DNA of 31,591 bases from Candidatus Sediminicultor tertius. Its GTDB lineage: Bacteria; Atribacterota; Phoenicimicrobiia; Phoenicimicrobiales; Phoenicimicrobiaceae. Where the stretch lies: NCBI GenBank assembly GCA_003527405.1, contig DPXH01000072.1, positions 1-31,591 of the forward strand. Direction: 5' to 3'. Of this stretch, positions 2,583 through 27,838 are shown piece by piece; within the stretch, counting starts at the first letter, position 1; the number at the start of each line of letters is the position of its first letter. Made by a program: the position numbers and the translations under genes. The notes below the pieces were generated by a model. The model worked only from the letters and a program-made list of their open reading frames with translations. It was not told the origin of the DNA and ran no database searches.

Positions 2583-2668
2583 GTAGAGGCACGATGCATC
2601 GTGACCACAGAAAAAATGGGTAATAATATAGCGAGGGCACAATTCATTGTGCCCTTACAATTCAATTA
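2583..2668. repeat. REPIN-like doublet, type 2 (two convergent REP-like hairpins)
   Basis: GTAGAGGCACGATGCATCGTGACC (2583-2606) and inverted AGGGCACAATTCATTGTGCCCTTAC (2634-2668 region); same pair as at 11615-11691. Confidence 0.75.
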
Positions 2669-2824
2669 TAACCAACAAATCTAAAATTATTTACGATACA
2701 TACACTGTATATATATTTTGCTATTAAATATTTTTTAGTTTTTTGGGGAATAACCATATTTTAAAAGAAGCATTATTAATCTATAAATTTATATTAGCCC
2801 TAAAATGTTTTAGGATGGTAATTA

Positions 2825-5800
2825 ATGAATAAAGCTACGGTTAAAAAATTGCATAAAAAAATATCTAAAAGGATTTTGCACGCGCAAATATTGGATGACA
2901 TCTCTTTAGATAAAGAGTTGGTTAGAAAATATATAGAAGATCCTCTATTTTTAAAACAATTAACCTCTATGGTAAAAAATAAAGATTATAGTTGTCGTGC
3001 AGTATATTTTTTGTGCAAAGGCCTGCTTGTCGATATAGACAAAAAACATAATCCCGCCAACTGGCTTTATCGGGTGTTTCAGTTTGCCCTATCTAAATCT
3101 TTCCCTGAAACAGTAGACCTATCTGTTAAGGATATCTCCCCTGATTGCCGAAAAACTTTCTTGCTCTATTTAGAATTTTTAAGAGTAGTTTCAAATTTCC
3201 AAAAGTCGTCCGGTGATTCTACTTTTCACGGTAAATATCCCCTTAATTTTTTAACCCCTGAGGAAAAAAACAAACTGGAGAATCCTGTTGAATATAAAAG
3301 ATTCTTAAAAGCGTTTAATGATGAGTATATCTATGAGATGATGAAATTAAGCCAGGAAGTTTTAAAGTACAATACTCTTGACCATATATGCGGGGTAAAC
3401 CGGATTGCTCTATTTATCGGCAGGCAGTTATATAATCTGGGTCTTCCCGTGGATTTGGGGAGGATTTCCGGAGCAGCAGCAGGACATGATATCGGAAAAT
3501 ACGGATGCAAGGGTATAGAAGTAGAAAGGACTCCCTATTTACATTATTACTATACCGATATGTGGTTTGAAAAACATAATATCCCTTATATCGGACATAT
3601 TGCAGTCAATCATTCTGTTTGGGATTTGGAACTGGATAATTTGCCCCTGGAATCACTTATATTGATTTATTCTGATTTTCGGGTTAAAAATGCGAATAAC
3701 GGTCCCAAAGAGGAGATGAGAATCTTTAGTTTAAAAGATTCATTTCAAGTAATTTTAGATAAACTGGACAATGTCAATGAGAAAAAAAGAAAAAGATATT
3801 GCCATGTTTATGAAAAATTAAAAGATTTTGAAGATTACATGATAAATTTAGGGATAAATGTAGATGTAGAGAGTAAAGAGAGGAGCTCTTGTAAAAAAGA
3901 TAGAAACCCGCATTATCCTCTTATGCAGGGTCAAGAAGTTATCCAAAATATAAAATTTTTGTCCATAGAACATAATATAAATTTAATGCACGAACTTCGA
4001 GATGAATCTTCTCTTAATTCACTTTTAGAATTAGCTCGAAGCGAAAAAGACTGGAACAATCTACGGGAATATCTGCAAATATTTAATGAATATTCCACCT
4101 ACCTGACTCAAAAACAGAAGATGATTACCCTGAGATATTTATACGAACAGTTAACTCATCCGGAAGATGAAATAAGAAGGAGGAGCGCAAAACTTATCGG
4201 TTTACTGATTGCCAGTTTTGACGAAGATTACCGCAAAGAGATCCCTCAGAATGTTACCCTTAAACCTCCCGCGATTACCAGTGTTAATTTATTGGAAAGA
4301 TATTTAAAATATTTTTTACAGCCGAGCCATAAAAAGATTGCTCTTCATCAATCTCGAATTATTGATAGTGCTGAGAATATGATCTCTTCTCTTTTTTCTA
4401 ACTGTCGCAATAATCATCAGATAAGCAATTACAGAAAAAGCATTTTAAAACACTATAAAAAAGACCTGTATACCGATGAAGAAATTCAACTGTGTTTGAT
4501 AAAAACCGCCAAACATATATCAATCTGCTCAGATGAAAAATCTTTAAAGGTATTATTTGATTATATTATAAAGATGTTACAGAAGGAGAATCACAATCTT
4601 AGACTTACTGCTTTAGAGGTAGTCTATGATTTAATACCTCAAATTGATAAAAATTTTAGATTTATAAATAACTTAAGAAAAATATTTACCGGAAATATTT
4701 CCGTCTCAGAGCTCCCCGCCGAAAATTATTTAAATATGAAGATAGTTGAATTATTAGATTTGGATGAAAGTATTGTAAAAAAGTACATCGAATTTTATCG
4801 GAGAGATATAGAAAAGGTACAGTATATATTTCTAAGCAACCTTAAAACTTCAACCAGTGGAATAATTAAGAAAATTCAGATAGAACTTTTATTAGAACAT
4901 ACCTTAAAGAGCAAGCAGGAAGAAATCTATACCGCCTTGCATTTTTGTAATATTTTGAAAGTTAGCGGCATAGAAGATATTAGAAATTTGGCCGGTAAAA
5001 CCCTGGTAAATTTAATGCCTTCCTTATCTTTCCAACAGAGGAACGATATAGCCATTGAACTATTGCGGGCCTTAGAAATGGAAGATTATCAATTTACTAA
5101 ATATATTCCTTACTATTTGGGTCAATTAATACTCTATCTTACGCCTAATGAGTTAGAGGAACTTATTGATGATTTAATAGAAAAAATCAAACAGTCAGAT
5201 CCCAAATTAAGCTCATTGCTGCTTAGAACCATCGGTATAGCCATTGCTAATTACCCTAAGTACCGGGAAAGATTTTCAGAAGAAGAGAAATCATACGAAA
5301 ACAGACTTGGCAAGATGATTGGTATCCTTTTGAACGGCTTTGTACACTATAATTTAAAGGTGAAACAGGCAGCATTCAGAGTTATCGGTAAGGAAATATT
5401 TGGCTCAAGACATCTCAGCATAGAAGAGAAGAATCATATATTTAAACTTATAGCCAAAAAAATTCTTACTCTGTTAGCTCCCGTAAATAAAGAAGGACTG
5501 ATGTTTTTAATAAATTGTATCGGACTTAAGTATATGTATAAATTTATCTCTGATTATAATTTTTATAAGGGGAGCATAAACCTTGAAATCCCGAACAAAA
5601 TAGCTTTCTTCCCGGGAGCCTTTGACCCGTTTTCCTTAGGTCACAGAGAGATTGCCAGGGCAATAGAAAATCTTGGTTTTGAAGTATATTTGGCTGTTGA
5701 TGAGTTTTCCTGGTCAAAAAGGACTCAACCCCACCTCTTCAGAAAGAATATAATAAATATTTCGATTGCCGATGAACTTAATGTATATTTATATCCTGAA

Positions 5801-7750
5801 GATTTACCGGTTAATATTGCCAATCCGGATGATTTAAAGGCTTTGAGGGAAAATTTCCCCTATTCCGAGGTGTATATTGTAGTAGGCAGTGATGTGATAT
5901 TAAATGCCTCTGCTTATAAAAAGAAAAAAACAGAAAATTCAATCCATACTTTTCCCCATATTGTTTTTGATAGAAAGGCTTCAAATTCTACCGAGGAAGA
6001 AAAGAAAAAAGTTCAAATACCAATTGAAAGCATCGGAGAAAATACCTTTAGACTTAACCTTGCTACTCGTTATGAAGAGGTAAGTTCAACTCAGATAAGA
6101 AATAATATAGATGAAAATAGAGACATTTCCAGATTTATTGACCCTTTAGCCCAGAAATATATTTACGAAAATAGTTTATACCAGAGAGAGCCCCAATATA
6201 AGCGTGTAATACAGACTATCTCTACCGATGTGCAGGTAATTGAAGATATTACCCCGGATTTAATAAAAGAACTTTGCCAGAAAATACTTTTCAAATATAA
6301 TCGAAATAAAGCATCTAAAAAATTGCTTGAGTTTACTCGTAAATTAAACCCGAGAATTCTACTATTGCGTGATATCCGCCATAACGGAAAGATATTGGGT
6401 TTTTCGGCCTTTCACTGGGTTCGTTCAAATATTCTTTTCCAGGAGTTCAAGGACAATTTAATTTCTGAGTATATCCGGGAAAATGCGGTTGGCCGCACTA
6501 TAGTTATTGATGGTATTTTTACCATAAGTGATATGGAAAATAGATCAGGGCTGGAAAGCCTTGATCAGGTTATTCTTACCGAAACCCTTTCTTTTTGTAT
6601 AGAGAAAGATTACGATTATGCGATTTTCAGAAATGTATTAGATGATTATCCCTTAACTTCTTTAAACGAGAATTTAGAACTTATGGGGTTTTATCGCTTG
6701 CCTTTCAGCGATAAAGATAATCCGGTATTTGTAGTGAATATGAGTAAACCTTGTATAGTCAATCTGGATACCGAGACAATCATAAAGGAACCTTTCTGCC
6801 AAAATTTAAGCATCAAAAAATCAGTTATAGTATCCCGTAAACGATTATTAAGATCGTTTACTACTTTTTATCCCGGAAATGTTGTTTTACCATTTAATAT
6901 AAATTTAATAAATCAGGCTATTGTAAAGAAAATTTGTAAGATAAATGATGTTTCGACAACGCCGCTAACCCCCCGAACTTTAGGAAAGTCAATGTGTGTG
7001 CCCTTTGGGAAGATACTACATAAAATGGTAGTACCTAATACGGTAACCAAATCTCTCCATACAGAAAAAATATTTGCTTCCGATATGAGAAGTTTTGAGA
7101 TTGATGCCTTCCCCAATTATATGAGTCTGGAAAATCAGGTAAAGGTGATTCATTCATTTGATATGCCCGTAATTCTTATTGATGACTATTTGCATAAAGG
7201 ATATAGAATAAAGACCCTTGAGCCCCTGTTTAAAGAATATGATATTAAAGTCAAAAAGATAATTGTGGGGGCACTATCCGGTAGCGGGAAAGAGATAGCA
7301 ACCATATTAAATAGAGATGTTGATTGTGCCCACTTTATTCCCAATCTCAGGCTTTGGTTTAATGAAAGTGAATTGTACCCCTTTATTGGCGGAGACGCAT
7401 TAAAGAGAAAAATAAGGACTCAGGGAAATTTAGTTAGATCTATTAATCAGATACTACCCTATACTTTCCCTTCATTTATTAAAAATGTTTCTGCAAAAAC
7501 CGTCTACAATTTTTCCGAAGTTTGTATTGAAAATGCTTTAACTATATTAGAAGCTCTGGAAAATGAATACCAGGTAATTCAACAAAGGAAATTGACGCTC
7601 GATCATTTAGGAGAAGTAATTATTTATCCCCGATATCCTGACCAGGGAGAAGATATGGAGTATAATTTAAATCTTAGCCCTTCTCATTACTTGGGAAATA
7701 GCCTTGAACTTTTACGAAGAACCAAAGGGATAGCAGACAGAGAAAGGTGA
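2825..7750 (+). CDS. 1641-aa multidomain protein: HD phosphohydrolase + helical (HEAT-like) region + NadD/cytidyltransferase-like (HIGH-class) nucleotidyltransferase + GNAT-like + type I PRTase-like domain; function unknown
   Basis: HD site H187...HD221-222 (AAAGHDIGK)...H240...H263...D284; FPGAFDPFSLGH (929-940), VGSD, SSTQIR (1087-1092) and YIYENSLY as in NadD; ILGFSAF...IVIDGIF...LELMGFY (GNAT-like, weaker); VILIDDYLHKGYRI (DD1453-1454, PRPP-binding-like). Confidence 0.8.
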   Translation: MNKATVKKLHKKISKRILHAQILDDISLDKELVRKYIEDPLFLKQLTSMVKNKDYSCRAVYFLCKGLLVDIDKKHNPANWLYRVFQFALSKSFPETVDLSVKDISPDCRKTFLLYLEFLRVVSNFQKSSGDSTFHGKYPLNFLTPEEKNKLENPVEYKRFLKAFNDEYIYEMMKLSQEVLKYNTLDHICGVNRIALFIGRQLYNLGLPVDLGRISGAAAGHDIGKYGCKGIEVERTPYLHYYYTDMWFEKHNIPYIGHIAVNHSVWDLELDNLPLESLILIYSDFRVKNANNGPKEEMRIFSLKDSFQVILDKLDNVNEKKRKRYCHVYEKLKDFEDYMINLGINVDVESKERSSCKKDRNPHYPLMQGQEVIQNIKFLSIEHNINLMHELRDESSLNSLLELARSEKDWNNLREYLQIFNEYSTYLTQKQKMITLRYLYEQLTHPEDEIRRRSAKLIGLLIASFDEDYRKEIPQNVTLKPPAITSVNLLERYLKYFLQPSHKKIALHQSRIIDSAENMISSLFSNCRNNHQISNYRKSILKHYKKDLYTDEEIQLCLIKTAKHISICSDEKSLKVLFDYIIKMLQKENHNLRLTALEVVYDLIPQIDKNFRFINNLRKIFTGNISVSELPAENYLNMKIVELLDLDESIVKKYIEFYRRDIEKVQYIFLSNLKTSTSGIIKKIQIELLLEHTLKSKQEEIYTALHFCNILKVSGIEDIRNLAGKTLVNLMPSLSFQQRNDIAIELLRALEMEDYQFTKYIPYYLGQLILYLTPNELEELIDDLIEKIKQSDPKLSSLLLRTIGIAIANYPKYRERFSEEEKSYENRLGKMIGILLNGFVHYNLKVKQAAFRVIGKEIFGSRHLSIEEKNHIFKLIAKKILTLLAPVNKEGLMFLINCIGLKYMYKFISDYNFYKGSINLEIPNKIAFFPGAFDPFSLGHREIARAIENLGFEVYLAVDEFSWSKRTQPHLFRKNIINISIADELNVYLYPEDLPVNIANPDDLKALRENFPYSEVYIVVGSDVILNASAYKKKKTENSIHTFPHIVFDRKASNSTEEEKKKVQIPIESIGENTFRLNLATRYEEVSSTQIRNNIDENRDISRFIDPLAQKYIYENSLYQREPQYKRVIQTISTDVQVIEDITPDLIKELCQKILFKYNRNKASKKLLEFTRKLNPRILLLRDIRHNGKILGFSAFHWVRSNILFQEFKDNLISEYIRENAVGRTIVIDGIFTISDMENRSGLESLDQVILTETLSFCIEKDYDYAIFRNVLDDYPLTSLNENLELMGFYRLPFSDKDNPVFVVNMSKPCIVNLDTETIIKEPFCQNLSIKKSVIVSRKRLLRSFTTFYPGNVVLPFNINLINQAIVKKICKINDVSTTPLTPRTLGKSMCVPFGKILHKMVVPNTVTKSLHTEKIFASDMRSFEIDAFPNYMSLENQVKVIHSFDMPVILIDDYLHKGYRIKTLEPLFKEYDIKVKKIIVGALSGSGKEIATILNRDVDCAHFIPNLRLWFNESELYPFIGGDALKRKIRTQGNLVRSINQILPYTFPSFIKNVSAKTVYNFSEVCIENALTILEALENEYQVIQQRKLTLDHLGEVIIYPRYPDQGEDMEYNLNLSPSHYLGNSLELLRRTKGIADRER

Positions 7751-7755
7751 GGACA

Positions 7756-7812
7756 AAATTCGTATCTCGTATCCCCGTTTTCACGGGGACAAGTCTTGTG
7801 AATCGTATCTCG
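7756..7812 (+). repeat. 57-bp dispersed element (copy 1) with an internal CCCCGT-TTTC-ACGGGG hairpin flanked by CGTATCT heptamers
   Basis: Identical to 22266-22322; inverted near-copy at 28823-28875. Confidence 0.85.
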
Positions 7813-7878
7813 TTTAGGATTAGTTTGTTGGTTAGTTGGTTAAGAAAAAAGAAGAAAGAATGAAATACGTATTATAAT

Positions 7879-7902
7879 GTAGGGACACGATGCATCGTGC
7901 CC
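7879..7902 (+). repeat. Solo REP-like hairpin, type 2
   Basis: GTAGGGACACGATGCATCGTGCCC: GTAG foot plus imperfect palindrome. Confidence 0.75.
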
Positions 7903-7929
7903 AAAGGACTTGACTGTCTCTGAATTAAG

Positions 7930-8001
7930 GTAGGGGTTCGATTCATCGAACCCGTTAAAGAAATTACCAAATAACCCGGGGCGGATAAATCCGCCCCCTA
8001 C
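7930..8001. repeat. REPIN-like doublet, type 1
   Basis: GTAGGGGTTCGATTCATCGAACCCG (7930-7954) and inverted GGGGCGGATAAATCCGCCCCCTAC (7978-8001). Confidence 0.85.
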
Positions 8002-8048
8002 AGGATAAATATGAAAATACATAATCTTTACGGGGAGAAAAATCAAAG

Positions 8049-9293
8049 ATGTTCTTCTATAAGCTAAAAGATAGGATACTAATTTCCCAATCGGAATACA
8101 GTGAATTAAATAGAATATCCGAAAGCGAAGCCAAAGAGAGCAAAGAAATAATTTATATACTTAACCGGATAAACCCCTTAAAATCCAGAAGATATTTTAG
8201 CATTACCGACCCCTCCCTAATTTTTTTGAAAGAAGAGGGTATCCACCTGCTGCAAAAATCCAAGAAGATTGATTATGATTTACCCTTATGGCTTAATCAA
8301 AGAATAAAAGAAAAAAGAGTGAGTTCACTTAATACCGAATATCCTAACTGGCAAGAGGTATTAACTTATAAATTTCCCTCCCGGTGGAAAGTGAATATTG
8401 TAGGATTGGGTGATGTAGGAGGGGCTCTCCTTACCGGTTTGAGATTATTGGGAGGAAGTTGTATTGAATCTATCGGAATATATGATAAAAATATAAAGGC
8501 GATAAAAAGATGGGAATTAGAGGCAAATCAGATATTTTGTCCTTTTACTGATTACCAATTCCCTGAGGTTTACCAGTTAAGAGAAGAGAATATTTTTGAT
8601 TGTGATATGTTTGTATTTTGCGCAACTGTAGGAGTTCCTTCTTTGGGAGAAGAACAGGAAGATGTGAGAATGAAGCAGTTCGAAGGGAATTCTAAGATAA
8701 TCTCTGATTATGCCCGAAAAGCCCGGGAAAAATCGTTTAAGGGGATATTTGCAATTATCTCAGACCCGGTAGACTTATTGTGTAAAGCTGCTTTTCTAAC
8801 CGGCAATAAAGATGCAAGCGGAGAGTTTGATTTTAAAGGATTGGCAGCAGACCAGATAAGAGGGTATGGGTTAGGAGTGATGCATGCCCGGGCAGTCTAC
8901 TACTCAAAACAAAATCCTGAAACTGCTGAATACAATCGAGAAGGGAGGGCCTTTGGTCCTCATGGCCGGGGTTTGGTAATTGCTAACAGTTTAAAAAAAT
9001 ATAACGAAAGTCTTTCAGAGATGCTTACCGGTCAGACCGTAAAAGCAAACCTAAAAGTAAGGGAGACCGGTTTTAAACCTTATATCGCACCTGCCTTATC
9101 TTCCGGGAGCTATCCCCTTATTGCCACTATGAGTGGAAAATGGCATTATAGTGCAACCTTTATGGGAGGGGTATTTATGGGAGCAAAAAATAGATTGCTC
9201 AAATCAGGGACTGAAATTGAAAGGGTAGACCTTCCGGATATTTTAGTAGAAAAAATTAAGAAAAGTTATCAGGAATTGGGTAATATCTTATAA
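8049..9293 (+). CDS. Divergent lactate/malate dehydrogenase-fold NAD-binding protein with ~110-aa N-terminal extension
   Basis: VNIVGLGDVGG Rossmann motif, YD146 (NAD-preferring), R207-x6-N, SDPVD, GVMHAR, GPHG (His305); GGGGAG RBS. Confidence 0.8.
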   Translation: MFFYKLKDRILISQSEYSELNRISESEAKESKEIIYILNRINPLKSRRYFSITDPSLIFLKEEGIHLLQKSKKIDYDLPLWLNQRIKEKRVSSLNTEYPNWQEVLTYKFPSRWKVNIVGLGDVGGALLTGLRLLGGSCIESIGIYDKNIKAIKRWELEANQIFCPFTDYQFPEVYQLREENIFDCDMFVFCATVGVPSLGEEQEDVRMKQFEGNSKIISDYARKAREKSFKGIFAIISDPVDLLCKAAFLTGNKDASGEFDFKGLAADQIRGYGLGVMHARAVYYSKQNPETAEYNREGRAFGPHGRGLVIANSLKKYNESLSEMLTGQTVKANLKVRETGFKPYIAPALSSGSYPLIATMSGKWHYSATFMGGVFMGAKNRLLKSGTEIERVDLPDILVEKIKKSYQELGNIL

Positions 9294-9295
9294 TA

Positions 9296-9405
9296 ATTAA
9301 AAATTTAAACCGAAAAGCGAAAAACCATAATTCAAAGCGCAAAACTTTTTCTTTCGATAATAAATTTTAAATTTTAAGCTATGGTTTTGCGTTTTACGGT
9401 TTTTG
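9296..9405. repeat. A/T-rich inverted-arm element (MITE-like)
   Basis: Arms aaaccgaaaagcgaaaaaccataattcaaa (9307-9336) and tttaagctatggttttgcgttttacggttt (9373-9402) are imperfect inverted repeats; related arms recur at 17492/17769, 22333/22386 and 25040. Confidence 0.7.
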
Positions 9406-9440
9406 TTATATAACAATTAACGACAAGAGGGAATTATTTT

Positions 9441-10493
9441 ATGGAAAATATTTTTTTGATTATGCCGGGAAAAGTATCGGATAGTTTTGCCGAGATTGTC
9501 AAAATAGCCACTGAAAATTGCCCATTAAAAATTATAAAAACTGTTAAGGATCTTCCCGTTGATTTACAAAATAAAAAGATTATATTTGCTATTGAATTAG
9601 ATGAATGCGGATTTAATCTCCCTCTGTTTGAGATGCTTTTAAAATTAAAGAAAAGGGGAGATAATGTTCTTTCAGGTTCAAGAGCAGTCATTATAATCCA
9701 AAGTTCGAGTGAGTTATTTACCAAGAGCACCGCTCAGAAGATGATTTTTCTAACCAATCAGATGGGGTGCCGGTTCCCCGGTCATCCGGTTGTAGAGGCC
9801 ACTTATAATCTTAATAATTTTCTTACCTGGCAAAAAATATATAACCTGCCTCTTGTAGAGATTTACCGAGAACGGGCCAGGGAATTAGTAAAAAAATTAA
9901 AAGATGAGAACTTAAAATTAATTAATAGACCGAAGATACTTGTATTGCATTCGAGTTTGTTTAAGACATCTAATACTCTTATGCTCTGGAAGATGGTAAA
10001 AGAAAGCCTTGGCGGGGAAGATATAAGAGAACTCCACGTAGAAAATGGAACTGTGGTAGATTGCCGGGGGTGTTCTTATAAAACCTGTATTCATTACAGT
10101 GAAGAAAAAAGCTGTTTTTATGGGGGGATTATGGTAAAAGAAATTCTTCCTGCGATAGAAGAGGTTGATTGTATCATCTGGTTATGCCCCAATTATAATG
10201 ATGTAATATCCGCAAAGCTTATGGCAGTTATAAATAGGATGACTGTACTTTATAAGAGAGTGAAATTTGGGGATAAAACTCTATTTTCCCTTGTGGTTTC
10301 CGGAAATTCAGGGAGTGATTGTGTGGCTAAACAGCTAATAGGGGCTTTAAATATTAACAAAGGATTCAGACTGCCTCCTTATTTTGCTTTAACTGCTACT
10401 GCCAATGACCCCGGGTCAATAATGAATGTCCCGGGGGTAGACCAAAAAGCAAAAGAATTCGCTGAAAACATAAAAAGAGAGATTAAAAAATAA
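9441..10493 (+). CDS. Tandem flavodoxin-fold protein; C-terminal half resembles NADPH-dependent FMN reductase / iron-sulfur flavoprotein
   Basis: KILVLHSS...TSNT (FMN phosphate-loop-like), C208xxC211x4C216x8C225, IIWLCPNYND, VVSGNSG; N-terminal half looks like a degenerate second flavodoxin fold. Confidence 0.75.
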   Translation: MENIFLIMPGKVSDSFAEIVKIATENCPLKIIKTVKDLPVDLQNKKIIFAIELDECGFNLPLFEMLLKLKKRGDNVLSGSRAVIIIQSSSELFTKSTAQKMIFLTNQMGCRFPGHPVVEATYNLNNFLTWQKIYNLPLVEIYRERARELVKKLKDENLKLINRPKILVLHSSLFKTSNTLMLWKMVKESLGGEDIRELHVENGTVVDCRGCSYKTCIHYSEEKSCFYGGIMVKEILPAIEEVDCIIWLCPNYNDVISAKLMAVINRMTVLYKRVKFGDKTLFSLVVSGNSGSDCVAKQLIGALNINKGFRLPPYFALTATANDPGSIMNVPGVDQKAKEFAENIKREIKK

Positions 10494-11540: not shown

Positions 11541-11614
11541 GTTACCAGGGTATAGGCGATACGCCCCTATTTTTTACCTGTTATCCGATACTTGTTTTCA
11601 CAAGAAGGGCAAAG

Positions 11615-11691
11615 GTAGGCGCACGATGCATCGTGCCCCTGATAATCAGAATACAATAATATAAGAAGGGCACAATTCATTGTGCCCATAC
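11615..11691. repeat. REPIN-like doublet, type 2
   Basis: GTAGGCGCACGATGCATCGTGCCCC (11615-11639) and inverted AGGGCACAATTCATTGTGCCCATAC (11667-11691). Confidence 0.8.
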
Positions 11692-11783
11692 AAAATAGCA
11701 CCTGATTTCTTTATTTTCTTTCTTTCCCTATTATTTTTTAACCAGCTAATCAGGTAACCAACTAACCAAATAACTAATTCCTA

Positions 11784-11876: not shown

Positions 11877-11952
11877 GGGCCCATAGCTCAGCTGGCAGAG
11901 CAACCGGCTCATAACCGGTCGGTCCCTGGTTCGAATCCAGGTGGGCCCACCA
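11877..11952 (+). tRNA. tRNA with CAT anticodon, most likely tRNA-Ile2 (lysidine-modified)
   Basis: 76 nt: acceptor GGGCCCA/TGGGCCC + ACCA, D stem GCTC/GAGC, anticodon arm ACCGG-CTCATAA-CCGGT, T arm CCTGG-TTCGAAT-CCAGG. Normal G1-C72 pair (not initiator); C4/C5 acceptor pattern resembles Ile2 rather than elongator Met. Confidence 0.92.
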
Positions 11953-13105: not shown

Positions 13106-13471
13106 GATAAGTAGGTCAGGTAATCGCGGAAGAAATAACATTTCTTCCGAGGAAAGTCCGAGCTCCATAGGGCAGAGTGCTGGGTAATCCCCAGTGAGGG
13201 TAACCTTAAGGAAAGTGCTACAGAAAATACACAGCCGGGAACTCTATTTTGAGTACTCGGTAAAGGTGAAAAGGCAGGGTAAGAGCCTACCAGTTGTTAG
13301 GTGACTAACAAGCTTAGTAAACCCCACTCGGAGCAAGACCAAATAGGAAGAGCTGTGGTGGCCCGCTGAATCTTCGGGTAGGTCGCTAGAGATGTAAGGT
13401 AACTTACATCCCAGATAGATGATTACCACCCTTATAAGGGGACAGAACTCGGCTTATACGATCTACTTATC
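13106..13471 (+). ncRNA. rnpB: RNase P RNA, bacterial type A
   Basis: GAGGAAAGTCCGAGCTCC, AGTGCTACAGAAAA, GGTGAAAAGG...GGTAAGAG, GGAGCAAG.CCAAATAGG, CGGGTAGG, TAGAT..ATGATTACC, ACAGAACTCGGCTTA. Terminal P1 pairing gataagtaggtc / gatctacttatc. Compensatory change in P11 (GTGCTA / TAGT..AC). Confidence 0.97.
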
Positions 13472-13486
13472 AAAATAAATTAATAT

Positions 13487-17334: not shown

Positions 17335-17960
17335 GTATATCGTATATCGTAAAGAGAATAGAAGACAGAATTCAGAAGTCAAAATAGTATCACGTATCGC
17401 GTATCGCGCGAAGAAAAAAGCGGATAGCGTGGAGCGTATAGCATATAGTGTAGAGTAAAATTAGCGTATAGCGTAAAGGGAATATAGCGAAAAATTAAAA
17501 GCGCAAAGCGCAAAATCATAGCGCAAAACTAAAAATAAAAAAAGTAGTAGTTTATATAATTGTATTAAAAAATCTAAAACAAAAAATAAAAAGTGTAAAA
17601 TTATACACTCTTCTGTCATTCCCACGAAAGTGGGAATCAAGTGTTAGAAGATAAAAAAAAGATGGATTCCTATTTTCATAGCCATGACAAAAGATATGAG
17701 CAATAAAAAAAGATAAGAAAAAAATGTTGTACAGAGTATTTTTTCCTATACGCTAAAAGCTGAATAGGTTTTAAGTTTTGAATTATGGTTTTTCGCTTTA
17801 CGCTTTAAGTTTTTAGTTGGTCAAAACGTATCAAAAGACTGCCCCTGGCACGCATTGAAACGCAATACGCAATACGATATACTATATACGAGATTTAACT
17901 GGAGAACGGGCGTCTTATCTTTCATACTATACGCTAAACGCTGTACGCTATACGCTATTT
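17335..17960. repeat. Composite repeat-built spacer (ftsI-murE)
   Basis: GTATCGC and TAGCGTA heptamer arms (17336-17474), A-rich arm (17492-17535), GTCATTCCCACGAAAGTGGGAATC (17615-17638) with degenerate inverted partner (17663-17689), T-rich arm (17769-17818), reverse heptamer arms (17858-17957). Confidence 0.75.
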
Positions 17961-21855: not shown

Positions 21856-22505
21856 CGTGGAACATAGAGTAAAATTAGCGTACAGCGTACAGCGTAGAGC
21901 GTGGAGTTAGAGAAAAGAAGTAGACGAAATATAAAAACCAATTTCCCTCTGTCATTCCCACGAAAGTGGGAATCCAGGAGTGAAAGATAAAAAAAGATAT
22001 ATTTGCGTTTTCACGGGAATGACAGAGAATAACTCGGGGTGGATAAATCCGCCCCCTACAGGAAATAAAAGCCTGCAAATAGGCATTTTATAACAAATTA
22101 GTGAAATTTAATTTTAAACTGGTTAACCAAGTAATTGAGTGAATTATAAAAGAAGGGCACAATTCATTGTGCCCCTACGCCTGAACCTTATTTCTTTAAC
22201 GCGATACGCAGTAGGAGAGTGGATTGAAACGCAAAAAGCAACACGATATACTGTATGCGAAGTTTAAATTCGTATCTCGTATCCCCGTTTTCACGGGGAC
22301 AAGTCTTGTGAATCGTATCTCGGAATATCGCGAAAAATTAAATGCGCAAAACTATAACTTAAAATTCAAAATTAAGAGAGAAAAGTTTTTAGTTTTGAAT
22401 TATGGTTTTTCGTTTTTAGTTTTAACTTTTTAGTTACTATACTGAAAACTGTCAACTGAAAACCTGTATTTAATACTAATGACTATTCACTATTCACTAA
22501 CGACT
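21856..22505. repeat. Composite repeat-built spacer (mraY-ftsW) at the usual murD position
   Basis: TAGCGTA arm, ATTCCC-N8-GGGAAT pair (21951-22023), reverse REPs (22036-22059, 22154-22178), 57-bp element (22266-22322), A/T-rich arm pair (22333-22435), ACTATTC heptamers. Confidence 0.75.
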
Positions 22506-24804: not shown

Positions 24805-25180
24805 GAAACTATAATATAGTATCGAGTATAGAGTATATAGTGAAGAAAGAAGAAGACAGAAGCCAGTATTCGGAAGCCAGAAGTAGGGGTTCGATTTATC
24901 GAACCCGCCAAATAAAATTAGTAAAATAACTCGAGGCGGATGAATCCGACCCCTACAAAATAAAATCATAAGTTTTTGAGTGTAGATATCTCTCCTGTAG
25001 TACTCTACGCTAAACGCTGTACGCTATACGCTAGAGAGGTTTTGAATTTTGAGTTATGATTTTTCGTTTTAAGTTTTTAATTTTAATTACATGTTCGTTT
25101 GATTTATAAAATCCGTATAAACAAATAAACATAGAAATTTTCCTAAATAAATCTGAACGCGATACGCGATACTCGATACT
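24805..25180. repeat. Composite repeat-built spacer (murG-murC) containing a type-1 REPIN-like doublet
   Basis: GTATCGA arm, REP 24883-24907 and inverted REP 24933-24956, TACGCTA arm, T-rich arm 25040-25088, GCGATAC arm 25155-25180. Confidence 0.75.
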
Positions 25181-27526: not shown

Positions 27527-27838
27527 GTATCGCGTATCGCGTGAAGAAAATCAGAAATCAGGAGTCAGAATAAATTAGTATCGAGATAGTATTTAGTATG
27601 TAGTAGCATCACGACATTGCCGTGATGAAGCCAAAAGGCAGAATAGAAAATAGCGGGTAGTGTATAGGGATAGAATATATAGTAGTAAGTAGGGGTTCGA
27701 TTTATCGAACCCGCCAAATAAAATTAACCAAATAACTCGGGGCGGATAAATCCGCCCCCTACAAAACAAAATCATAAATTTTAAAGTGTAGATATTTCTC
27801 CTGTTATGCTCACGTTAAACGCTGTACGCTATATGCTA
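27527..27838. repeat. Composite repeat-built spacer (murB-ftsQ) containing a type-1 REPIN-like doublet
   Basis: GTATCGC arm after the stop codon, REP 27689-27713 and inverted REP 27739-27762, TACGCTA arm; right half closely resembles 24882-25033. Confidence 0.75.

Follow-up and report, generated by a model that had tools for sequence, protein, structure and literature searches.

The 31,591-nucleotide contig DPXH01000072.1 from Candidatus Sediminicultor tertius (Atribacterota), referred to below as the window, carries on its forward strand one open reading frame (ORF; 2825-7750) for a protein of 1,641 residues, and raises the question of what a single chain of this size and composition might do. 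The initial annotation had taken part of it (3383-6190) as a writer and an eraser joined in one polypeptide, with a NadD-like adenylyltransferase opposed by a YqeK-like HD site. The giant is found to be one chain in which a predicted HD phosphohydrolase, a HEAT/ARM solenoid, a HIGH-type nucleotidyltransferase (NTase), a GNAT-like domain and a phosphoribosyltransferase (PRTase)-like domain follow one another, and its gene is the first of a self-contained three-gene cassette retained across phyla. We tentatively favour, with somewhat less than even confidence, that this cassette would run an undescribed small-molecule nucleotide pathway, dinucleotide or cofactor-like in kind. The component folds are known; the architecture and the operon are uncharacterised, and a full-text literature search retrieved no paper describing the giant family. 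The present analysis adds a comparison of NadD acceptor motifs, shows that canonical nadD-yqeK coexist with the giant gene, and describes variants that lack the HD domain, have dead sites or are linked to PPDK_N.

Five domains in one chain

Conservation was assessed over 44 full-length homologues (1,625-1,650 residues, 52-98% identical to the giant). The same number of sequences formed the input alignment for structure prediction, in which the protein was modelled as two halves (residues 1-920 and 911-1641), and Pfam was surveyed over 28 homologues. On the giant itself PF01467 is the sole family that Pfam recognises. In the ORF translation all motif residues listed in the initial annotation lie where they had been placed, and the HD and NTase motif constellation is confirmed to be far beyond chance. 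The codon of H187 begins at nucleotide 3383, and that of residue 1122 ends at 6190. Between these bounds the motifs had been placed correctly, but the 186 residues before H187 and some 520 at the C-terminus had been left out; the degenerate GNAT-like domain, the strongly conserved PRTase-like domain and two conserved redox partners had been overlooked. Ahead of the HD core lies a helical N-terminal region (residues 1-149; 2825-3271), seen in the AlphaFold2 model as helices H2-H149 with a predicted local distance difference test score (pLDDT) of 81-95, for which family-profile searches returned no match.

The segment that follows is a divergent HD-superfamily domain (residues ~150-345; 3272-3859). 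Its candidate metal ligands H187, H221, D222, H240, H263 and D284, as well as K225, are invariant in the 44-homologue alignment, and the ligands remain unchanged in a further 37, more divergent HD segments from genome loci, down to ~41% overall identity. The complete di-metal constellation first noted from the window thus holds throughout 44 + 37 sequences. The six-residue H..HD..H..H..D pattern marks an HD site as dinuclear, and its counterparts in YqeK are H21, H50, D51, H83, H109 and D127 (PMC8177086). Judged from these putative ligands together with the profile comparisons, a di-metal HD-superfamily domain in the giant appears well supported. Against Pfam HD (PF01966) the giant reaches 12.5 bits (E 0.18) with a gathering cut-off of 22 bits, 12 of the 28 homologues match at E < 0.1 (best E 0.0026), and one clostridial homologue attains 20.4 bits over profile positions 2-110 of 116, again with a cut-off of 22. 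A profile search of the PDB with the HD segment gave only 1xx7 (E 0.18), aligned at the H..HD part of that HD protein. Among the named feature hits in the ESM Atlas, 23 of 30 fall in a set labelled PF01966 HD; with 16% of the listed cluster members carrying PF01966, the label is only a lead. In the model of residues 1-920 the surroundings of the site are all-alpha, with the candidate ligands at helix ends and a pLDDT mostly of 85-95. The Foldseek lists for this N-terminal model were filled by HEAT matches, and its comparison with viral structures gave nothing significant and no HD match. Likewise, a search with the HD region for shorter proteins was dominated by fragments of the giant family itself.

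The initial annotation had called this domain YqeK-like. The six-residue di-metal motif is, however, common to HD-GYP, PgpH and HD oxygenases, and is therefore not specific to YqeK. Alignment of the HD segment by hhalign to an HD-GYP alignment (P 1e-4) spans H..HD..H..D; alignment to YqeK (P 7e-5, 58 columns) covers the H..HD stretch only. At E <= 0.01 the YqeK profile TIGR00488 matches neither the giant nor any other protein of this genome, and in five clostridial carrier genomes it matches only a separate canonical yqeK adjoining nadD (5/5). The six-ligand motif thus stands, whereas membership in YqeK does not.

Between the HD and NTase domains extends a HEAT/ARM-like alpha-solenoid (residues ~370-915; 3932-5569). 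AlphaFold2 gives a confident all-alpha model for residues 1-920 (pLDDT 88.5, predicted template modelling score 0.85), with the solenoid mostly at pLDDT 85-96. Its top Foldseek matches in the PDB are a designed ARM protein, importin-alpha/beta, CAND1 and PP2A-A (E 5e-6 to 2e-4, prob 1.0), and Pfam HEAT is detected in 18 of the 28 homologues (best E 8e-6). The helical HEAT-like stretch, previously put at ~600 residues, is by AlphaFold2 and Foldseek an all-alpha solenoid of roughly 550.

The NTase domain, a HIGH-type (Rossmann) nucleotidyltransferase of NadD-like fold (residues ~920-1125; 5582-6199), contains GAFDPFSLGH (931-940), VGSD (1020-1023), SSTQIR (1087-1092, read with the preceding residue as ISSTQIR) and YIYENSLY (1112-1119), within which G931, F933, D934, H940, G1021, D1023, S1088, R1092, Y1114 and Y1119 are invariant. 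PF01467 (CTP_transf_like) scores 29.3 bits over residues 928-1093 with a cut-off of 21, and matches 28/28 homologues. In the model of residues 911-1641 (pLDDT 79.9), the first ~215 residues have NadD structures as their top 30 Foldseek matches (E 2e-7 to 7e-5, prob 1.0, target TM-score 0.6-0.7), which bears out the NadD-like fold originally proposed.

To compare motifs, 13 NTase domains of the giant family were aligned with six canonical NadDs. The ATP-binding elements of NadD are retained, i.e. GxFDP, the second His of the HIGH motif (H940) and ISSTxIR. The first His of that motif is S or T, giving the family consensus S/T-L-S/G-H; PPAT carries the HIGH-motif variant TxGH. The SLGH that had been remarked on in place of HxGH/TxGH is thus a genuine conserved variant. 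It is likewise present in the best PDB sequence match of the domain, VPA0413 (3h05). This protein and other PRK08887-type NadD-like proteins share the P-S-L-G-H form of the motif and a C-terminal SxxxxR region with the giant; VPA0413 is, however, a stand-alone protein of 177 residues, deposited as 'uncharacterized', has no accessory domains, and matches the giant weakly (E 1e-3 to 7e-5). Conversely, the elements of NadD that accommodate nicotinate mononucleotide (NaMN) are replaced: the PxxxPPHK loop is an invariant VDEFSWSK in the giant family, the SYT motif falls in a 4-residue deletion, and the stacking Trp corresponds to Y1031 of the giant.

The scores of the NadD model TIGR00482 point the same way. 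The giant reaches 46.8 bits (51.9 bits in the genome scan) against a cut-off of 112.45, whereas a canonical NadD encoded on another contig of this genome scores 151.2 bits; each of the five clostridial carriers also has a canonical NadD, at 177-198 bits versus 42-49 bits for the NTase domain of its giant. A NadD-like adenylyltransferase is consequently upheld in fold and ATP motifs, and not in its acceptor side. The simplest reading of the motif pattern, which we infer from the alignment, would be an active NTP-dependent transferase with an acceptor different from NaMN. The giant was also considered as the housekeeping NadD/YqeK of the genome, and this was ruled out by the low TIGR00482 score, the separate canonical NadD, the null result for YqeK and the replaced NaMN motifs.

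A comparable pairing is known from Firmicutes and mycoplasmas, where a NadD-fold HIGH-type adenylyltransferase likewise stands alongside a six-ligand HD phosphohydrolase. In this NadD-YqeK system, a NaMN adenylyltransferase and a di-iron HD diphosphatase occur as a pair or a fusion (PMC9426524, PMC8177086), and for the fused form a proofreading role is documented (PMC9426524). The giant differs in having the HD domain first, with a HEAT solenoid of ~550 residues in between, and in adding the GNAT-like and PRTase-like domains and two redox partner genes. Moreover, it fails the YqeK model and has its NaMN motifs replaced, and its carriers keep a canonical nadD of their own, in Clostridia together with yqeK.

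The GNAT-like domain (residues ~1130-1315; 6212-6769) is recognised by its predicted strand and helix order, b1-a1-a2-b2-b3-b4-a3-b5-a4-b6 (pLDDT 80-97), and by a weak Foldseek match to NAT10; the region matches no Pfam family and is the least conserved domain, at 47% column identity. The acetyl-CoA loop motif Q/RxxGxG/A is absent from the b4-a3 loop, which is variable in length and sequence among homologues, and the domain is probably not a canonical acetyltransferase.

The C-terminal PRTase-like domain (residues 1321-1641; 6785-7747) looks like the core of the superfamily and its most constant domain, with 65% column identity and 42 invariant columns in the homologue alignment. Where type I PRTases carry the motif for 5-phosphoribosyl pyrophosphate (PRPP), it has VILIDDYLHKGYR, in which a hydrophobic strand leads into an acidic pair and then a basic/Gly loop. 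D1453, G1459 and R1461 are near-invariant in this PRPP-like loop, and among cluster representatives D1453 is kept in 96/98, D1454 in 91/98 and G1395 in 96/98. The same succession of strand, acidic pair and loop is found in type I PRTases, PurR and PyrR, whose loop reads hhhhDDxxxT/SGxT; in the giant, however, HKGYR replaces T/S-G-x-T, the domain is ~320 residues long with large family-specific conserved blocks (VPNTVTKSLHTEK, WFNES..YPFIGGD), and all scores lie below curated thresholds. PF00156 is found in 5 of the 28 homologues (best E 0.019) and in genome scans at E 0.009-0.03, with 15 bits versus a cut-off of 26.3. Comparison with PRTases by hhalign gives P ~1e-3 and a probability of 4-24%, the best match being a subfamily of ~273 residues with an N-terminal extension and a PRT domain, which we take to be PurR-like. 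The ESM Atlas links the segment to PRTase clusters with a score of 0.95, and a PDB profile search with it gave chance hits only. Support for a PRTase fold is thus consistent but weak.

The three-gene cassette and its natural variants

Downstream of the giant gene, on the same strand, lie two genes for putative redox partners. The first (8049-9293) encodes an LDH/MDH-fold protein of 414 residues with an N-terminal extension of ~110 residues, which matches Ldh_1_N at E 7e-7 and L-LDH in the PDB at E 1e-3; L-LDH models match it far under their cut-offs. The second (9441-10493) encodes an FMN_red-type flavoprotein of 350 residues with an N-terminal extension of ~160 residues (PF03358, E 8e-18), in which a CxxCx4Cx8C motif is read from the sequence and which is classed as an Fe-S flavoprotein. 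In a sample of 80 loci of the giant family, the LDH-like gene is directly downstream of the giant on the same strand in 72 and the flavoprotein gene is third in 64-65; the loci lacking either are mostly contig ends, and no other gene cluster is common to more than 9 of the 80. The cassette recurs in gut and rumen metagenome contigs. In the window the gap between the giant and the LDH-like gene measures 298 bp, compared with a median of ~11 bp elsewhere, because it is filled by repeats resembling repetitive extragenic palindromic (REP) elements. Rfam searches of the whole window and of the 1-kb upstream gap gave no riboswitch or leader, and promoter and terminator scans performed no better than on shuffled sequences.

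Databases list over 2,500 members of the giant family, under the names 'cytidyltransferase' or 'NaMN adenylyltransferase'. Relatives are encoded in at least 575 species genomes from Atribacterota, many Clostridia and one Calditrichales genome, those closest to the window being Atribacterota (76-97% identical), and 26 of 399 evenly sampled Clostridia genomes carry the giant. Hundreds of species, among them Clostridia, Atribacterota and anaerobes of gut or rumen, thus carry the giant, almost always with the same two redox partners.

To survey the superfamily, a profile of the PRTase-like domain was run against 1.84 billion cluster representatives. This gave 424 clusters, of which the top 150 all belong to the giant superfamily, with no bridge to a named PRTase family among them; 96 of these are complete proteins. 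All six HD ligands are intact in 72 representatives, 64 of which keep both H940 and R1092 of the NTase. Six have the HD fold with its ligands lost (both NTase residues kept in 3), and 18 have no HD domain, being proteins of 1,050-1,310 residues with their own start codons (both kept in 10). Intact HD and NTase sites hence co-occur in 64/72 versus 13/24 representatives (odds ratio 6.8, Fisher p 6e-4), in a test that treats phylogenetically non-independent clusters as independent. The state of the two sites is discordant in 21/96: 13 representatives have the NTase motifs and no working HD, and 8 with an intact HD have H940Q or gaps at the aligned ISSTxIR positions. H940 is changed to Q in seven HD-intact representatives, and to Q or D among relatives. 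The 13 and 8 discordant cases show that the two sites are not strictly interdependent; as read from these motifs, the HD/NTase pair is the usual state, and that of the window protein, yet it is not obligatory. The writer/eraser pair of the initial annotation therefore describes this branch, in which both sites are strongly constrained, and is common in the superfamily, where some members have one or the other absent, dead or altered. Such natural variants (HD absent, HD ligands dead, H940Q, with the PRTase-like motif almost constant) are ready-made controls for finding the core activity.

The HD-less forms are real genes. One of them, P0349, lies on a 143-kb contig with 6 kb retrieved on either side (L187) and aligns to residues 381-1638 of the giant at 27% identity over ~1,250 residues, sharing the same HEAT, NTase-fold, GNAT-like and PRTase-like core. 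The HD-less relatives (1,050-1,310 residues) differ from the giant in lacking the HD domain, in having lost the NTase His or Arg in 8/18, and in having a gene with a PPDK_N domain upstream. With an HD-less protein as query, the 399 Clostridia genomes yielded full-length forms only, and the HD-less forms were located in metagenome contigs. The upstream gene encodes 874 residues (PF01326, the ATP-grasp domain of enzymes that utilise phosphoenolpyruvate) and is found immediately upstream in all five HD-less metagenome loci as well as in two HD-bearing relatives, ending ~10 bp before the giant-like gene. This PPDK_N-linked, mostly HD-less divergent branch comprises L187 (3365-5989), L188, L190, L191, L194, L195 and L254. 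In L187 and L195, the two loci with downstream flank, the LDH-like and flavoprotein genes do not follow, and the PPDK_N protein is a possible alternative partner replacing that pair.

Some further relatives depart from the common form. The full-length cluster representatives P0316, P0321 and P0347 (~1,550-1,590 residues) carry changes at three places, in the HD ligands, in the NTase His/Arg and in the PRTase-like loop, which reads DDCE or DDGE, and may be wholly non-catalytic paralogues. Stand-alone proteins of ~495-500 residues (P0175, P0193, P0207, P0215 and P0239; one from Blautia at 41% identity), some of them on contigs of 29-76 kb, correspond only to residues 1-488 of the giant, i.e. the N-terminal helices, the HD domain and the first HEAT repeats; they may be truncated, split or pseudogenised forms. 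A homologue in a metagenome-assembled genome of Clostridium sp. UBA1056 (L050, 11883-12839) has an in-frame stop codon within the PRTase-like region, which is either a pseudogene mutation or an assembly error.

Proposed chemistry and competing readings

If the cassette does run a nucleotide pathway, its steps could be ordered as follows. The PRTase-like domain would bind a 5-phosphoribosyl compound, or make one from PRPP. The NTase, with the ATP motifs of NadD and a rebuilt acceptor pocket, would adenylylate the phosphate of this compound instead of NaMN, giving a dinucleotide-type product and pyrophosphate. The di-metal HD domain might then hydrolyse a phosphoanhydride or phosphoester bond in the product or in a mis-made one, either to turn the product over or to proofread, in the manner of YqeK with NadD. 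The solenoid would hold the catalytic domains and dock the two redox partners, which in turn may make, use or reduce the compound, and the GNAT-like domain would be structural or ligand-binding. A more specific version is that the cassette both makes and uses a new dinucleotide-type cofactor or signal in strict anaerobes, through phosphoribosylation, adenylylation and policing or recycling by the HD domain, with the LDH-fold protein and the Fe-S flavoprotein depending on the product or reducing it; this we hold to be rather doubtful. If true, an unstudied part of the metabolism of anaerobes would come into view.

The proposed pathway draws support from the domain architecture with its invariant HD ligands, from an NTase that keeps the ATP motifs of NadD and not its acceptor motifs, from the canonical nadD (and clostridial yqeK) encoded separately, from the persistence of the cassette, from the constancy of the PRTase-like motif, from the association of intact HD and NTase sites, from the NadD-YqeK precedent (PMC9426524) and from the negative PADLOC result. 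Three metatranscriptome libraries also contain contigs from relatives that match each gene of the cassette at 90-95% identity, which is compatible with expression in relatives but neither proves transcription nor bears on operon structure. Several observations weigh against the pathway. Every catalytic step of the putative chemistry is derived from motifs. The HD assignment is statistically weak (Pfam below cut-off, hhalign P ~1e-4), and the PRTase-like assignment is below the Pfam cut-off, with hhalign P ~1e-3 and no PDB profile match; the second Asp of the PRPP-like loop also varies (D, N or T) in some members. The pLDDT of the NTase model falls below 50 at residues 959-981 and 1082-1131. 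The discordant representatives described above, and the non-independence of the clusters in the association test, count on the same side. 

Catalysis might instead be minor or absent. In a sensor or regulatory scaffold, the enzyme-like domains would serve chiefly as binding sites, the PRTase-like domain for PRPP or a nucleotide and the NTase for NAD-type ligands, and the solenoid would relay this to control the partners. Such a role would suit the HEAT/ARM solenoid, these being typically interaction scaffolds, and a GNAT-like domain without the CoA loop; PRTase folds act as PRPP sensors in PurR and PyrR, the best hhalign match of the PRTase-like domain is presumably PurR-like, and the PRTase-like motif is retained even in relatives whose HD and NTase sites are dead or missing. 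Binding alone would hardly explain, however, why in this branch every canonical HD and NTase catalytic residue is invariant over 41-98% identity, or why 64/96 representatives keep both sites intact, and a scaffold of this kind is considered unlikely. In a strict cycle, the NTase would attach AMP to one specific small molecule or protein and the HD domain would take the same AMP off again; this would resemble the cycle of GlnD, likewise a single chain with both a transferase and an HD hydrolase. The GlnD transferase has a Pol-beta-type fold and modifies protein Tyr. The giant's transferase is by Pfam (PF01467) and Foldseek a NadD-like Rossmann enzyme of the HIGH type, an unrelated fold, and the comparison with GlnD drawn in the initial annotation is superficial, a likeness by analogy only. 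The substrates of HIGH-type transferases are small molecules, modified at a phosphate, sulfate or carboxylate, and none of these enzymes is known to modify proteins; AMPylation of a protein in the style of GlnD or GlnE is therefore unlikely. The conservation of both sites in one chain, their statistical association and the precedent for synthesis plus hydrolysis in the NadD-YqeK fusion (PMC9426524) would accord with a strict cycle. Against this, the 13 HD-less or HD-dead representatives with an intact NTase and the 8 HD-intact ones with a variant NTase fit it poorly, and the PRTase-like domain and the redox partners would be left unexplained; as a whole, the strict cycle is judged quite improbable.

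The public annotation as nicotinate-nucleotide adenylyltransferase suggests an enzyme of the NAD pathway, i.e. an ordinary adenylyltransferase for NaMN or nicotinamide mononucleotide (NMN), combined with a YqeK-type hydrolase of diadenosine tetraphosphate (Ap4A) or nicotinate adenine dinucleotide (NaAD) and a nicotinate-type PRTase. NadD is indeed the best structural match of the NTase, and a PRT followed by an NMN adenylyltransferase mirrors the order of the Preiss-Handler pathway. The TIGR00482 score and the replaced NaMN-binding motifs speak against it, as do a separate canonical nadD in every genome tested, yqeK in the five clostridial carriers and the failure of the YqeK model to match; nicotinate PRTs are moreover type II, not of the type I-like fold suggested for the giant. 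We regard this reading as very improbable. The public labels 'NaMN adenylyltransferase' and 'cytidyltransferase' are misleading, given that carriers encode a NadD besides the giant, whose acceptor pocket is rebuilt, and this bears on reconstructions of the NAD pathway in the carrier organisms. Multi-domain nucleotide enzymes with HD and PRTase domains also occur in conflict systems, and a weak match to PRTase_3 in the ESM Atlas (score 0.80) could hint at a nucleotide-signal defence module. However, PADLOC gave no match for the giant or either partner, no mobile-element genes adjoin the cassette, genes flanking it (e.g. ndk and rlmN in the window) are conserved only among close relatives, and the distribution over at least 575 species is broadly vertical and housekeeping-like. 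On the PADLOC result and the genomic context the defence reading, which we find scarcely credible, is rejected.

Other features of the window

The non-coding gap ahead of the giant gene (1820-2824) is unusually long, at 1 kb, and contains REP-like repeats. Among close relatives its length varies, from ~120 bp (L005) to ~580 bp (L007) and ~800 bp (L004). Several families of GC-rich short palindromic REP-like repeats occupy intergenic gaps of the window, both gaps within the cassette included, examples being GGGGCGGATAAATCCGCCCC (4 copies), GGGCACAATTCATTGTGCCC (4 copies) and GTAGGGGTTCGATTCATCGAACCC (3 copies). The repeat stretches lie at 2577-2668, 7756-8009, 9288-9414, 11609-11693, 17415-17957, 21865-22435, 24881-25089 and 27687-27838. 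In metagenome and metatranscriptome runs, the contig depth over these stretches is very high, and contigs join 2601 to 7914 and 2660 to 7973 across them.

Upstream of the gap, the ndk gene (1289-1819) encodes a protein of 176 residues that the NDK profile matches in two stretches, residues 1-49 and 94-175; the split match implies an insertion of ~40 residues relative to the norm of 135-140. Between the cassette and a dcw cluster (mraZ-mraW-ftsL-PBP) lie a bacterial RNase P class A RNA (13108-13473, 312 bits) and a tRNA (11877-11949).

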